Source of the DNA: Candidatus Thorarchaeota archaeon | GTDB lineage: Archaea; Asgardarchaeota; Thorarchaeia; Thorarchaeales; Thorarchaeaceae | NCBI GenBank assembly: GCA_011364985.1 | Contig: RDOC01000005.1 | Span: 32,001-96,000 of the forward strand | DNA: 64,000 nucleotides | Direction: 5' to 3' | Position numbers and translations under genes: made by a program | The notes under the pieces: generated by a model | What the model was told of the DNA's origin: nothing | Databases searched by the model: none | The model's input: the letters and a program-made list of their open reading frames with translations, nothing else | Part shown: positions 18,674 to 22,228 of the stretch, in pieces | How the letters are laid out: every line of letters begins with the position of its first letter | How positions within the stretch are numbered: position 1 is the stretch's first letter

Positions 18674-18772
18674 GCAGTTATAGGATAACTTATCCTAGTA
18701 CCTGCTGAGAGTAAGTTCATATTTGAAAGAGGCCATTCTTTCTTGCTGCTCCTGATTGGAGGAAAAAGAGGA

Positions 18773-19585
18773 TTGAAGAAACCGCTTCTCAAGGTTCTTA
18801 GGTGTCCAAAATGCCAGAGGAGCCTATTCATATCTGAGAATAATGCGAATCTAAATGAAATTCACGAAACGACCTTAGCGTGCGAGAAGGGTCACATTTG
18901 GAAGGTAGAGGATGGAATTCCTTCTCTTGTGTTTCCGTCCGTTAGTTCCAAGGATGCAAAATGGATTGCCCAATATGAAGAAATGGCCGAGAGCTACGAT
19001 GATCTTGTCAAGCAGTACGATGATTGGCTTGGCATAGATATGATGAAAGAACGAGAGAGAATTGTTCGTTTCGTTCCGATAGAGGCACCTGTAAAGATAC
19101 TGGATGTAAGCATTGGAACTGCAGCCACCTTTATTGCTTTGTACAATGCATTCCAAGGAAAACAGATGGAACGTTTCAATCTTCATGGGCTCGATCTCTC
19201 TCTTGGCATGCTCAAGGTGGCGAAACAGAAGATAGAGAAAAGAAGCTTGGACATCAGTCTCGTTCACGGGAACGTATTCAATATTCCATACAAGAACAAC
19301 TCGTTCAACATCGTCTATCATAGTGGGGGTATCAATACATTCTCAGATATTGGCCTAGCATTGAACGAGATGCTCAGAGTTGTACGGTCCGGTGGAATTG
19401 TTGTAGTTGTTGATGAGGGGTTGTCTCCAGACATGCGTGAAAGCGAGAAAGGGAAGGAGATTATAAGGACCAATAGTTTATTTGCAGCAAGGCCACCCAT
19501 CGCATACTTGCCTGAGAAGGTAAAGGATGTTGAAATGAACTATATCATGAATGGGACGTTCTATGAGGTTGTATTCAGAAAATAG
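18773..19585 (+). CDS. Class I SAM methyltransferase with N-terminal Trm112-like zinc ribbon
   Basis: LRCPKC..CEKGH.WKVEDGIP; ILDVSIGT, GLDLSLGML, EMLRVVRSGG. Likely TTG start at 18773. Confidence 0.88.
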   Translation: MKKPLLKVLRCPKCQRSLFISENNANLNEIHETTLACEKGHIWKVEDGIPSLVFPSVSSKDAKWIAQYEEMAESYDDLVKQYDDWLGIDMMKERERIVRFVPIEAPVKILDVSIGTAATFIALYNAFQGKQMERFNLHGLDLSLGMLKVAKQKIEKRSLDISLVHGNVFNIPYKNNSFNIVYHSGGINTFSDIGLALNEMLRVVRSGGIVVVVDEGLSPDMRESEKGKEIIRTNSLFAARPPIAYLPEKVKDVEMNYIMNGTFYEVVFRK

Positions 19586-19615
19586 ATGAGTCTGTTAATA
19601 GAAAATAGTCTGTGC

Positions 19616-19726
19616 TCATGTGGCTTCCCACAAGAGCACTTGTTCGCATGTGGCACAACGATGATCGGCTTTCTCGTTGCGACTGGGATGATGAGTAGTT
19701 CGAATGAATTCCTTTTGGTCATTCAT
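19616..19726 (-). CDS. Microprotein D (36 aa) MNDQKEFIRTTHHPSRNEKADHRCATCEQVLLWEAT
   Basis: GAGGT 10 nt upstream of ATG; begins 6 nt after the ORF C stop; CxxC plus His residues. Confidence 0.45.
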   Translation of the reverse strand: MNDQKEFIRTTHHPSRNEKADHRCATCEQVLLWEAT

Positions 19727-19732
19727 AGCGGA

Positions 19733-19825
19733 CTATACCTCTTTGTAAAGATATGAATGTGCAAGCGCCTTGGTCGAAACATGCTGCTTGACACGTCGAT
19801 CATATTCTTTCTTAACTGGAAACAT
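19733..19825 (-). CDS. Microprotein C (30 aa) MFPVKKEYDRRVKQHVSTKALAHSYLYKEV
   Basis: GGAGGT 7 nt upstream of ATG; begins 5 nt after the ORF B stop; similar to ORF B. Confidence 0.55.
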   Translation of the reverse strand: MFPVKKEYDRRVKQHVSTKALAHSYLYKEV

Positions 19826-19830
19826 CGAGC

Positions 19831-19938
19831 TTACCTCCTGTATGCAAGCGCGTACCCAATAGCATCGGTCGAAACAACCTTTGCCATTTTCGAATTCCTT
19901 GTTCCACTTCTGAATAGGGCATTCTTCTCAATTGCCAT
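19831..19938 (-). CDS. Microprotein B (35 aa) MAIEKNALFRSGTRNSKMAKVVSTDAIGYALAYRR
   Basis: GAGGT 8 nt upstream of ATG; overlaps the end of ORF A. Confidence 0.55.
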   Translation of the reverse strand: MAIEKNALFRSGTRNSKMAKVVSTDAIGYALAYRR

Positions 19939-20089
19939 TTTTACTTACCTCGTGATGCGTATGAGTAGTAGAGTGCCTCATTCCAGTGATAGTTCGAAGT
20001 TGATGCATATTGGAGTTCTTCACTTCGATTACTTGTTTCTTGGACCAATCTTGCTCACCAATCCTTGTGTGAACCAGTTGAGTTCGCAT
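19928..20089 (-). CDS. Microprotein A (53 aa) MRTQLVHTRIGEQDWSKKQVIEVKNSNMHQLRTITGMRHSTTHTHHEVSKNGN
   Basis: ATG lies at leaderless distance from a TTTATATA box (20117-20110, minus strand). Confidence 0.5.
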   Translation of the reverse strand: MRTQLVHTRIGEQDWSKKQVIEVKNSNMHQLRTITGMRHSTTHTHHEVSKNGN

Positions 20090-20104
20090 GTTTCCATACA
20101 AAGT

Positions 20105-20210
20105 CTACATATATAAAGGTTTGTAAACCAAACCATTTGTAACTAAAACCATTTTAATACGTACTTTTTTTGTCTTACATGGTTCCTACGATAAACCTTT
20201 TAAAATGGAT
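20105..20210. promoter_or_regulatory. Divergent archaeal promoter pair with possible operator repeats
   Basis: Minus strand AAACC-TTTATATA and plus strand AAACC-TTTTAAAA (BRE/TATA-like). AAACCATTT occurs twice between them, with an inverted ATGGTT. Confidence 0.6.
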
Positions 20211-20254
20211 TGCGCATAAAATACAAAGAACAAAGAACGAATTGGGATGATAGA

Positions 20255-20992
20255 TTGACGAAATATGAAGTGACTGACGCCCTTGAGGGAATTGAACTCA
20301 CGGAAGAGGGCAAACAGGAAATGCGCGACATCGTGTTCATTCACGATAAAGAACGTGGGGAAATCATAGACGACCAAGTAAGACATTTCATCATCCAAAT
20401 CCTGAAGCGCGGAATTGACGATATGCTGACGACTGAAACCAAGGACCCAAGTACAGGGGGAACTATTAGGATTCAGAGAGAAATAAAGCGATATGCAATG
20501 TCGGTTGTGGAGATTGTCAGAATGGCAAAGAGGTATAACGACATTGACAATGTGACCAAAAATCAAGTTTATCACCACCTGCCAAAACTCATTGAAGCGG
20601 GCTTTGTAGTCAAATATGGAACCGTTGTAACTGGAAAAAGAACAACGGATTACTACCGAAGAACGGCAAAGGGCTTTGTTCTTGCTACGAGCCAATCGAC
20701 TATGAATGAAGCGTTAATGAAGAGGAAAGCAGAAAGTCATGTCGAGAAGTTCTCAATCTTTGATATTACTCTTTCAGAGGCCCAGAAGAAGGAACTAGTG
20801 GGCCTGCTGTTTGAAGCAGCCAAGATAGAGAAGAAAGGCGTATCGGAAATCGCCAAGCTCGTGAAGGGGGACGTCGCCGATAAGGAGATACTATCGATGT
20901 ACGAGGATTTGGTTATGCTATATGCCCTTGGTGATGAGAACTGGTTACAAATTCATAGAAGGATACGGGAAATTCTCCTTCCAAACAAATAA
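20255..20992 (+). CDS. Winged HTH (ArsR-like) transcriptional regulator
   Basis: DQVRHFIIQIL...MSVVEI...KNQVYHHLPKLIEAGFV...TDYYRRTA. Likely TTG start at 20255 (ORF track starts at 20210). Confidence 0.85.
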   Translation: MTKYEVTDALEGIELTEEGKQEMRDIVFIHDKERGEIIDDQVRHFIIQILKRGIDDMLTTETKDPSTGGTIRIQREIKRYAMSVVEIVRMAKRYNDIDNVTKNQVYHHLPKLIEAGFVVKYGTVVTGKRTTDYYRRTAKGFVLATSQSTMNEALMKRKAESHVEKFSIFDITLSEAQKKELVGLLFEAAKIEKKGVSEIAKLVKGDVADKEILSMYEDLVMLYALGDENWLQIHRRIREILLPNK

Positions 20993-21364: not shown

Positions 21365-21742
21365 CTAAAGCCGCCTCATTAGTTGAATTGCAGTCTTCGC
21401 CAAATCAACAATGGTGAGCTCTGGTACGGAGTCAGGAGTGGCCCAAGCAATTGCCCAAGTGTCATCTTCTACAAGAGCCATTAGGAGATGACCTTGGTCC
21501 TTGTCCGCAGTTGCTATGTACGATTCGTCATCGGCAGCTACCAATCTGTAGGTCACACCACCTACCGAAATAGAGGAGGCTCCTGACGATGATGCAGTGG
21601 CTAAGGATTCTGTGGCATCGACAAGGTTATTCCAGTTTCTGGTAACCCAAATGATCTCACCGTTCTTCATAATCGCGAAAGCCTGAATCTTCGGATTATG
21701 GGAATACAGAAGTTTCCACTCATTATCGATAGTCATGTCCAT
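21365..21742 (-). CDS. Profilin-like protein (divergent paralog)
   Basis: IQAFAIMKNGEIIWVTRNW...SISVGGVTY...GHLLMA...WAIAWA; collinear with the neighbouring profilin. Confidence 0.72.
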   Translation of the reverse strand: MDMTIDNEWKLLYSHNPKIQAFAIMKNGEIIWVTRNWNNLVDATESLATASSSGASSISVGGVTYRLVAADDESYIATADKDQGHLLMALVEDDTWAIAWATPDSVPELTIVDLAKTAIQLMRRL

Positions 21743-21847
21743 TTTGATTTCACCAGAATGCAGCTATATTCTTGGACACCTAGAACTCACAAGATGGGTC
21801 GGACGGATTGCATTGGCCAGATAGACAGCCCATCTCAGACTGCCTTC

Positions 21848-22228
21848 TTAGATTTTGCCTTTCAGTGATTTTGCAGCACGATCAACATCGACATAGATTC
21901 CGTCTGGAGCAGCTTCTGCCGCAGCCCAAGCAACAACGAACTTGTCGCCCTCGATTTTGGCTAAAACCAAAATGCCGCTTCCTTGAACATTTCTGGCTAC
22001 GAGACTATCGGGAGTTGTCCGAATTGTGCTGTATTTCACCTGATTCTGCATGACACTTGCAGCACCACTGCCAACTGCCTTGCCAAGCTGAGCTGCATCG
22101 GCTGTGAGGTCCCAGTTGTTTGACTGCCAAAGGACCTGGCCGGAGGTAGTGATTACTCCAAAGGCTTGAACCATGTTTCCGCTGTCATTGTAGGCTTGTG
22201 TGTATGCATCCATAACTGGATCTGACAA
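21848..22228 (-). CDS. Asgard-type profilin
   Basis: 126 aa; AFGVITTSGQVLWQSNNWD, QVKYSTIR, LVARNVQGSGILV, FVVAW. Confidence 0.82.
   Translation of the reverse strand: MSDPVMDAYTQAYNDSGNMVQAFGVITTSGQVLWQSNNWDLTADAAQLGKAVGSGAASVMQNQVKYSTIRTTPDSLVARNVQGSGILVLAKIEGDKFVVAWAAAEAAPDGIYVDVDRAAKSLKGKI

Follow-up and report, generated by a model that had tools for sequence, protein, structure and literature searches.

Predicted arrays of translationally coupled microprotein genes, dispersed and concertedly evolving, in Thorarchaeota

The DNA considered here is a stretch of 64,000 nucleotides (nt) from a Candidatus Thorarchaeota archaeon (GenBank assembly GCA_011364985.1, contig RDOC01000005.1, positions 32,001 to 96,000), referred to below in its full length as the window. 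Within it, a row of very short genes lies on the minus strand between a methyltransferase gene (18743-19585, plus strand) and the gene of a winged-helix regulator (20210/20255-20992, plus strand). The array is made up of four open reading frames (ORFs), designated A', B, C and D, which are preceded by a palindromic operator (O1) and a TATA box and followed by a terminator-like hairpin (Table 1); it reads as a self-contained transcription unit of about 0.43 kb. From the usual archaeal spacing between TATA box and start, transcription of the operon would begin near 20088, and the TATA block is 82-93% identical across the genus in short blastn matches. A' and B are 2 nt apart. For the other three ORFs the description given by the initial annotation of the window holds: B, C and D have ATG starts and lengths of 35, 30 and 36 amino acids (aa), the gaps between them are 5 nt (B-C) and 6 nt (C-D), and each has a GAGGT or GGAGGT Shine-Dalgarno sequence (SD) 7-10 nt upstream, within the final codons of the preceding ORF. 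The GGAGGT of C, for instance, sits within the last codons of B, and the stop codon of D (19618-19616) is itself part of the 3' arm of the hairpin. When the 1.7-Mb assembly was scanned for SD-led ORFs of 22-60 codons lying no more than 15 nt apart, a single chain of at least three members was found, namely the four-member chain A'-B-C-D of the window; the same scan on reversed and shuffled genomes, which served as controls, returned zero such chains.

Thirty orthologous loci from the order were gathered by way of the regulator, and in about 26 of these Thorarchaeota loci, from at least 10 genera, a B-C-D array was found upstream of and divergent from the regulator orthologue. This was the comparison that the initial annotation had put forward as a check, and the starts, SDs and lengths of B, C and D proved to be kept, with an ATG and an SD at each of the three. 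Members of B (48 distinct sequences, 32-37 aa) follow the consensus MA.A.N....S..KN.......ST.AI.YAY.YRR, and those of C (30 distinct sequences, 26-31 aa) the consensus MALAK....K....K.IST.AI.HAY.YR. The two have in common a 12-residue motif, (I/V)STxA(I/L)x(Y/H)(A/S)YxY, so that the pattern VSTxA(I/L)..Y, first noticed in the window, was confirmed and is kept family-wide; the N-terminus MALAKN of C is conserved too. D (32 distinct sequences, 34-40 aa) consists of a hypervariable polar stretch followed by (I/L)TxEEVLx(W/L)EAT, in which L, E and the terminal T never vary; its frame is unbroken across the hypervariable run of about 26 codons in every one of the 32 sequences.

The pattern of substitution is that of coding DNA. 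Over the final 13 codons of B, C and D, a fraction of 0.30-0.35 of first codon positions differ, against 0.21-0.22 of second and 0.54-0.55 of third positions. Indels between the ORFs shift their relative frame, while those within them are multiples of three; among five near-identical copies in one genome (G024), a 1-nt indel lies between B and C and the indel inside B is 6 nt long. After the tyrosine motif, B and C carry tails of 1-5 residues (R, RR, NR, KEV, REV, TVVR or MTVVR), which correspond to whichever frame reads the GGAGGT or GGTGA of the next gene; since the tail spells the next SD, the functional peptide motif is taken to end at Y-x-Y. On this evidence B, C and D are judged to be genuine genes, and a translationally coupled operon of microprotein genes, as originally proposed, is supported. 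An Rfam scan of 19300-20500, in which E values up to 10 were allowed, gave no match at E < 1 and three chance matches at E >= 3.9.

The 3' end of D appears to carry two kinds of information. Thirty-one of 32 D 3' regions fold with a z score below -2 relative to shuffles (median -4.3), and a run of at least four T follows within 40 nt in 26 of the 32. Paired stem substitutions are seen between lineages while the peptide remains EEVLxWEAT: GTG...CAC becomes GTA...TAC, a synonymous valine change matched by a change in the 3' untranslated region, and the stems of other lineages read CTCCTCT/AGAGGAG, GGAGGCC/GGCCTCC and GAGGCGA/TCGCCTC. The same bases are thus predicted to encode the protein motif and to form the stem of a covarying terminator hairpin, and this double duty explains the 82-93% blastn matches to a short block across genera.

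The first gene required a change of frame. The initial annotation had placed there a 53-aa ORF, A (20089-19928), with a leaderless start, a gap of -11 nt to B and a resemblance to D (RT...TH.H). Its frame is open in the window, but in the nearest relative with the locus (G016, 70% DNA identity over about 600 bp) it contains two in-frame stops and a 1-nt indel near the start, and has no ATG. The A' frame is open in both genomes, with a TTG start in the window, an ATG in G016 and a GGTGA 6 nt upstream in each. Since ORF A was the wrong frame, the leaderless start is given up, the gap to B becomes the 2 nt measured from A', and the similarity to D falls as well; the N-terminal 26 or so residues of D are in any case hypervariable. 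The C-terminus of A' (WNEALYYSYASRGK) resembles the B/C motif. In six more genomes of the genus this position is occupied by a 29-aa ORF that ends in ESLYYDYCAWR, and other genera lack it. A' is probably a paralogue of B and C restricted to the genus. The suggestion that the operon arose partly by duplication is therefore retained, with B and C as paralogues and A' as the probable third. At the A' position of a divergent metagenomic member (L134:3834-4001 / L135:630-800), a 56-aa ORF coupled to B via TAATG was observed.

A profile built from B found matches, 3-8 per genome, in 49 of the 59 genomes in the family to which the window belongs and in none of the 192 that represent 27 further families of the phylum. 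Searched against 1.84 billion representative proteins, the profile gave 19 matches, of which 18 are proteins of 29-49 aa and one is a 1590-aa protein without an aligned stretch; the search thus yielded no larger carrier of the motif, and the few named members of the B family bear the label 'hypothetical protein'. The most divergent members still keep the order B-C-D or B-D and the hairpin. On these results, the tiny coupled genes (26-40 aa) belong to a family that appears not to have been described before and was found only in Thorarchaeota.

In the genome of the window (G000) at least four paralogous arrays were found, including the window copy (Table 1). In the array on contig C15, a 447-aa gene of the MFS_3 family ('transmembrane secretion effector'; MFS, major facilitator superfamily) starts 14 nt after the stop codon of C. 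This locus also occurs in G087, G045 and G020; the MFS gene of G045 and of G020 begins 5 nt past the stop of the preceding peptide, with an SD overlapping that stop, and that of G087 about 360 nt downstream. Other array positions are likewise kept across genera, namely downstream of URO-D and PolX genes and next to one for a GNAT, and the copies are therefore regarded as old paralogues and not as recent insertions. The DNA of promoter plus B is, on the other hand, more alike between loci in one genome (identity 0.80) than at the same locus between genomes (0.63). In G024 there are five units of about 410 bp that are 88-97% identical, the similarity starting at the operator and stopping at the terminator. 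The whole predicted transcription unit evolves in concert, its copies being old paralogues homogenised by gene conversion, and this concerted evolution suggests selection on dosage or uniformity.

Table 1. Features of the microprotein array and its surroundings in the window, and further arrays of the same genome (G000)
Feature	Position	Strand	Description
Operator O1	20118..20134	-	palindrome GGTTTG-GTTTA-CAAACC, directly 5' of the TATA box (position of the B recognition element, BRE)
TATA box of microprotein operon	20110..20117	-	TTTATATA
A'	19941..20048	-	35 aa; TTG start; GGTGA SD at 20059-20055; C-terminus WNEALYYSYASRGK
B	19831..19938	-	35 aa; basic, net charge +5; ATG start; motif STDAIGYALAYRR
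C	19733..19825	-	30 aa; basic; ATG start; paralogue of B (VSTKALAHSYLYKEV)
D	19616..19726	-	36 aa; ATG start; hypervariable polar N-terminus; conserved C-terminus EQVLLWEAT
Terminator-like hairpin	19612..19639	-	GTGCTCTTGTGG-GAAG-CCACATGAGCAC; one stem mismatch; T-run 19605-19602
119-aa ORF	19757-20116	+	antisense to A', B and part of C; might be picked by a gene caller
O1-like site	20181..20205	+	GGTTCCTACGATAAACC then TTTTAAAA; faces the regulator gene
Winged-helix regulator (PH1932/ArsR-PadR-like)	20255..20992	+	listed start TTG 20210
Further array	G000:C20:41650-42070 (L056:3153-3570)		B-C-D
Further array	G000:C4:5929-6370 (L058)		B-C-D
Further array	G000:C15:203910-205557 (L057)		B-C, then MFS_3 gene in place of D

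The 119-aa ORF on the opposite strand was considered as a real gene and rejected. Its frame is not kept open in relatives, where the median share of an array spanned by the longest open frame on the antisense strand is 64%, and the ORF is not a conserved gene.

The sequence GGTTTG-N4-6-CAAACC followed by an A/T-rich TATA box faces the peptide genes in 17 of 23 regulator-linked loci, and its sole occurrence in the 1.7-Mb assembly is the window locus. On the side of the regulator gene, the O1-like site of the window has an equivalent in G016 (GGTTCAGACGATAAACC-TTTTAAAA), which is weaker or absent at other loci. The TATA element on this side lies only 4 nt before the TTG listed as the regulator start (20210), so that the TTG at 20255 is the more likely start; the G016 orthologue begins at the equivalent LTK(I/Y)EV, which matches 20255, and this is probably the true start. 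Orthologues of the regulator are present in 76 of 87 genomes of the order. In Pfam, matches to PadR (19.9 bits, cut-off 27), HTH_20 (16.4 bits, cut-off 27) and HTH_5 lie over the helix-turn-helix, all below the curated cut-offs. The best solved relative is PH1932 (1uly), which aligns over 150 residues (107-256 with 37-190) at E 9.6e-5. PH1932 of Pyrococcus horikoshii (PDB 1uly/2cwe) is an ArsR-type winged-helix protein, and the likeness concerns the neighbouring regulator only, not the microproteins; the Thorarchaeota regulator differs from it in having an extra N-terminal part of about 100 residues. The initial annotation had put the operon under the control of this divergent, ArsR-like regulator. 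A divergent winged-helix gene is indeed there, with Pfam matches below threshold, and control by it is plausible: the binding of the regulator to the first operator is suggested by position and co-conservation.

The three other G000 copies have no adjacent regulator and a different operator, from which it follows that the link to the regulator belongs to one paralogue and not to the family. They possess a promoter of about 90 nt that is common across genera and near-identical among the three arrays, with, in order, GTCACA-N3-TGTGAC, TGTGACCC, GTGGCTTCGC-TATATATAC and a short leader with GTGA. The full palindrome GTCACA-N3-TGTGAC, together with a similar half-site and a TATA box, was also seen 5' of a gene for a 412-aa protein (G000:C11:89220, region 88737-90458) with GGSVKVEG-type repeats, bactofilin-like by eye; a 118-aa gene directly upstream of it could encode a factor for this palindrome. 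A scan of a viral collection with the operator pattern of the GTCACA-N3-TGTGAC class matched once, by chance, within a 434-aa ORF on a single viral contig.

B and C are basic peptides with an isoelectric point (pI) of about 10.5, a net charge of +5/+6 and a mean grand average of hydropathy (GRAVY) of -0.60 and -0.75, respectively, rich in K, R, T, S and N. D has a pI of about 5 and a net charge of about -2. All three are hydrophilic (GRAVY -0.6 to -0.8) with almost no Cys, Gly or Pro, and in none of them was a signal peptide, a transmembrane segment or a hydrophobic stretch found. The CxxC that the initial annotation had noted in D is present in the window, but within the family it occurs only there, in G016 and in the C20 paralogue, and metal binding through it is not supported: when the peptides were viewed as small zinc-ribbon or CxxC microproteins, no conserved Cys pairs were found, and Cys makes up 1.7% of D and 0.1-0.2% of B and C family-wide.

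Searches for relatives of the peptides gave little. Pfam has no family for B or C and gave only a chance zinc-finger match for D (E 0.053), NCBIfam has no family for the microproteins, and the B profile reached no better than E 0.15 among PDB sequences. Look-alikes of B in the ESM Atlas (IS66-type clusters, 0.82) were discarded, their score being within the range of shuffled sequences. Mimicry of a larger protein was likewise discarded, since regular expressions for the B/C and D motifs, run over the six-frame translated assembly, matched the microproteins only, as were terminal motifs of the HbYX, PIP-box, MIM, LIR and EEVD types, which, compared by eye, misfit in spacing or terminal position. 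Two metatranscriptome runs from the source study contained no contigs on the stretch, and the public runs listed as holding it are DNA runs, which may be its source, with no RNA run among them. Full-text searches of the literature brought up nothing about genes of this kind in Asgard archaea; one preprint, on small proteins of the deep sea, names Asgard only in a reference.

Some neighbouring genes and further small ORFs were recorded in passing. The methyltransferase at 18743-19585 is of the UbiE/MenG-like class I type with an N-terminal Trm112-like zinc ribbon (NCBIfam Trm112_arch, 32 bits, under the cut-off), and a Trm112-like methyltransferase gene is convergent to the array in many genera. 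On the minus strand of the window, two tandem genes of about 125 aa each occupy 21365-22228, the first with a weak Pfam profilin match (E 0.011). Loci of regulator paralogues in G005, G003, G012 and G011 (L040:1325-1459, L041:1820-1954, L042:2317-2451, L043:1563-1697) have another conserved SD-led ORF, of 44 aa, with the pattern M.LY.WI..V..H.S...SH(V/I)QTKMLM, which adjoins a P-type ATPase-like gene in G003 and G005. In or near arrays of two genomes (L032:2773-2913 and L043:1719-1829), a microprotein with a MALAK-like N-terminus ends in EVYRTSF(R/V)R.

The reading that we favour, and to which we would give about an even chance, is that the arrays specify co-produced cytoplasmic microproteins that act in trans as a Thorarchaeota-specific module. 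The palindromic operator abutting a strong TATA box would yield an inducible polycistronic mRNA of three to four ORFs of 26-40 codons; the SD of each downstream ORF being written into the last codons and stop of the preceding one, translational coupling would provide A', B, C and D in similar amounts, and the hairpin containing the last stop codon, with its T-run, would end the unit. The basic peptides with the tyrosine motif may bind a shared target, either a polyanion (RNA, the ribosome or DNA) or one partner protein, as their charge and composition suggest, and D could be their partner or antagonist. Dedicated repressors or activators would turn expression on and off: for the window copy the winged-helix protein at GGTTTG-N5-CAAACC, and for the other three copies a separate factor acting at GTCACA-N3-TGTGAC. 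A repeated 12-residue motif on two or three basic carriers, a variable spacing to the stop codon, an acidic partner and concerted evolution argue for products that work in trans and not for cis signals. The genes with their conservation, the coupling signals, operators and terminator, the number of copies and their concerted evolution are established from the sequences, whereas we infer translation in vivo, the action in trans, the target and the pairing of proteins with operators. More ambitiously, the arrays may be a three-component system, present in 4-8 concertedly evolving copies in at least two regulons, whose abundant products act on the ribosome, nucleic acids or a hub protein and reset physiology on a signal; this extension is possible but doubtful.

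Several points weigh against the favoured reading. The conserved parts are short, about 12 aa, and nucleic-acid or ribosome binding is a guess from charge and composition. The blank results from Pfam, NCBIfam and PDB leave no homologue, fold or partner that would indicate a target, and AlphaFold2, given 48 sequences of B, returned a single low-confidence helix (mean predicted local distance difference test, pLDDT, 64.7). A' is less well supported than B, C and D, because its differences from G016 are flat by codon position (9/10/10) and because the B profile does not match it. The MFS_3 gene coupled to the array at one paralogous locus fits export or control by a leader peptide better than a role confined to the cytoplasm, and keeps both of these readings alive.

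Were B and C, with or without D, secreted signals or antimicrobials, or precursors of such, the MFS_3 protein would be their exporter or immunity pump. Tandem paralogous, cationic, leaderless peptides of 26-36 aa would suit this, as would the MFS_3 gene, translationally coupled right after the second peptide at one conserved locus in three genera, the hypervariable middles between conserved ends and the dispersal of the gene family, which resembles that of prochlorosin precursors. Yet the peptides are hydrophilic (GRAVY -0.6 to -0.8), neither amphipathic nor hydrophobic, and have no Cys and no GG-type cleavage site. In a survey of the neighbours of 23 non-regulator loci, made by clustering and with Pfam on eight representatives, no radical-SAM, YcaO, LanM-type or ABC-transporter family recurs beside the arrays, and within 5 kb on either side no maturase of ribosomally synthesized and post-translationally modified peptides (radical SAM, YcaO, LanM/LanB, P450) is recurrent; the neighbours in the window (TrmB, the Trm112-fused methyltransferase, the regulator and an AsnC-like gene) include no maturase either, though one might be encoded elsewhere. 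Bacteriocin loci are typically accessory, whereas nearly all of the lineage carries the arrays, in syntenic positions; export is on balance unlikely. The same MFS gene could instead be the controlled one: B and C would then be cis-acting leader or arrest peptides, whose C-terminal motifs sense a metabolite or drug in the ribosome tunnel and gate D or the pump. Conservation of the C-terminal 12 or so residues beneath variable N-terminal parts, a fixed length of about 30-35 aa, an SD of the next ORF overlapping every stop codon and an efflux-type MFS that follows at one locus all recall bacterial pumps under leader-peptide control. A ribosome-arrest motif would be expected at a fixed distance from the stop, whereas here the distance varies between 1 and 5 residues; two or three paralogous 'leaders' stand in series, most loci have only the 38-aa D downstream and then a terminator, D carries a conserved peptide motif of its own, and the N-terminus MALAKN is kept as well. 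We consider this reading quite improbable.

Two other explanations are poorly supported. The arrays could be selfish or addictive repeats, dispersed modules of about 410 bp maintained by toxicity in the manner of type I toxin-antitoxin repeats (Ldr/Rdl, Ibs/Sib), for which speak the self-contained units, their 3-8 copies per genome, their near-identity within a genome and their peptides of about 35 aa. The peptides are, however, not hydrophobic and without a transmembrane segment, the units lack both terminal repeats and target duplications, the hypervariability of the coding stretches argues against a conserved antisense RNA, and the same syntenic sites are occupied across genera (PolX, GNAT, MFS, regulator), as expected of old paralogues; such an origin is very unlikely. 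It would be most surprising if there were no peptides at all, the conserved blocks being RNA or DNA signals and the ORFs non-coding or due to chance. SDs, operator and the terminator hairpin over the end of D are conserved at the nucleic-acid level; set against this are the third-position bias in B, C and D, the frames that stay open across hypervariable sequence, the peptide motifs that are kept while the hairpin sequence changes, the ATG and SD at every ORF, the Rfam scan free of matches at E < 1 and the uniqueness of the four-member chain in the genome.

Genes of this size are skipped by most annotation pipelines, and a conserved layer of the biology of a lineage can in this way stay unseen. 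Here, conservation, duplication at several loci, homogenisation and two operators amount to an upkeep that argues for an important function. The work corrects the gene model of the locus, in the frame of A' and in the start of the regulator, and offers parts that can be tested: three families of peptides and two operator motifs, all of which appear to be undescribed, together with a candidate regulator and a terminator hairpin having bases in common with the conserved end of D. Peptides that did bind the ribosome, nucleic acids or a hub protein would represent a novel type of regulator in archaea, and a new class of small-protein effectors among the closest archaeal relatives of eukaryotes; export would instead make them the first system of peptide signals or antimicrobials to be proposed in Asgard archaea.

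None of the known systems with which the arrays were compared takes them in as members, though each shares part of their organisation. The ldr/rdl loci of the long direct repeats (LDR) and the ibs/sib loci of E. coli encode transmembrane toxin peptides under antisense RNA control. As in these type I toxin-antitoxin systems, a genome holds a number of scattered units of about 0.4-0.5 kb that each encode a peptide of about 35 aa; the array peptides are polar and not hydrophobic toxins, and are encoded polycistronically, under an operator, at conserved syntenic sites. SpeFL and TnaC are single-copy leader peptides upstream of a large regulated operon, with an exact geometry relative to the stop codon. 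The arrays resemble them in their short ORFs (24-35 codons) with a conserved C-terminal part directly before the next cistron, but their motif stands at a varying distance from the stop, they have more than one such 'leader', and for the most part they close with another microprotein.

Leaderless bacteriocins come close in gene arrangement. Aureocin A70 (aurABCD) and garvicin KS (gakABC) are encoded by three to four tandem genes of 30-35 codons, each with its own ribosome-binding site, and their products are paralogous cationic leaderless peptides; B and C are likewise tandem paralogues of 26-37 aa with a net charge of +5/+6 and no leader. The bacteriocin peptides are amphipathic or hydrophobic and rich in Trp and Gly, and they are found with ABC exporter and immunity genes as accessory elements of Firmicutes. 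B and C, in contrast, are hydrophilic and do not have the composition of membrane-active peptides; the arrays are syntenic, near-universal in one archaeal family, multi-copy and concertedly evolving, and their linkage to an exporter is confined to MFS_3 at one of at least four locus types, with none at the window locus or at two other G000 locus types. The alpha/beta small acid-soluble spore proteins (SASPs) of Bacillus also come from small genes scattered over the genome, every one under a regulated promoter and with a terminator of its own, and are small hydrophilic binders of a polyanion, DNA. SASPs are bacterial proteins of 60-75 aa, monocistronic and characterised as DNA binders, whereas the arrays are coupled triads without sequence similarity to them; the likeness lies in the dispersal of small genes under their own promoters and terminators and in the similar, hydrophilic nature of the products.

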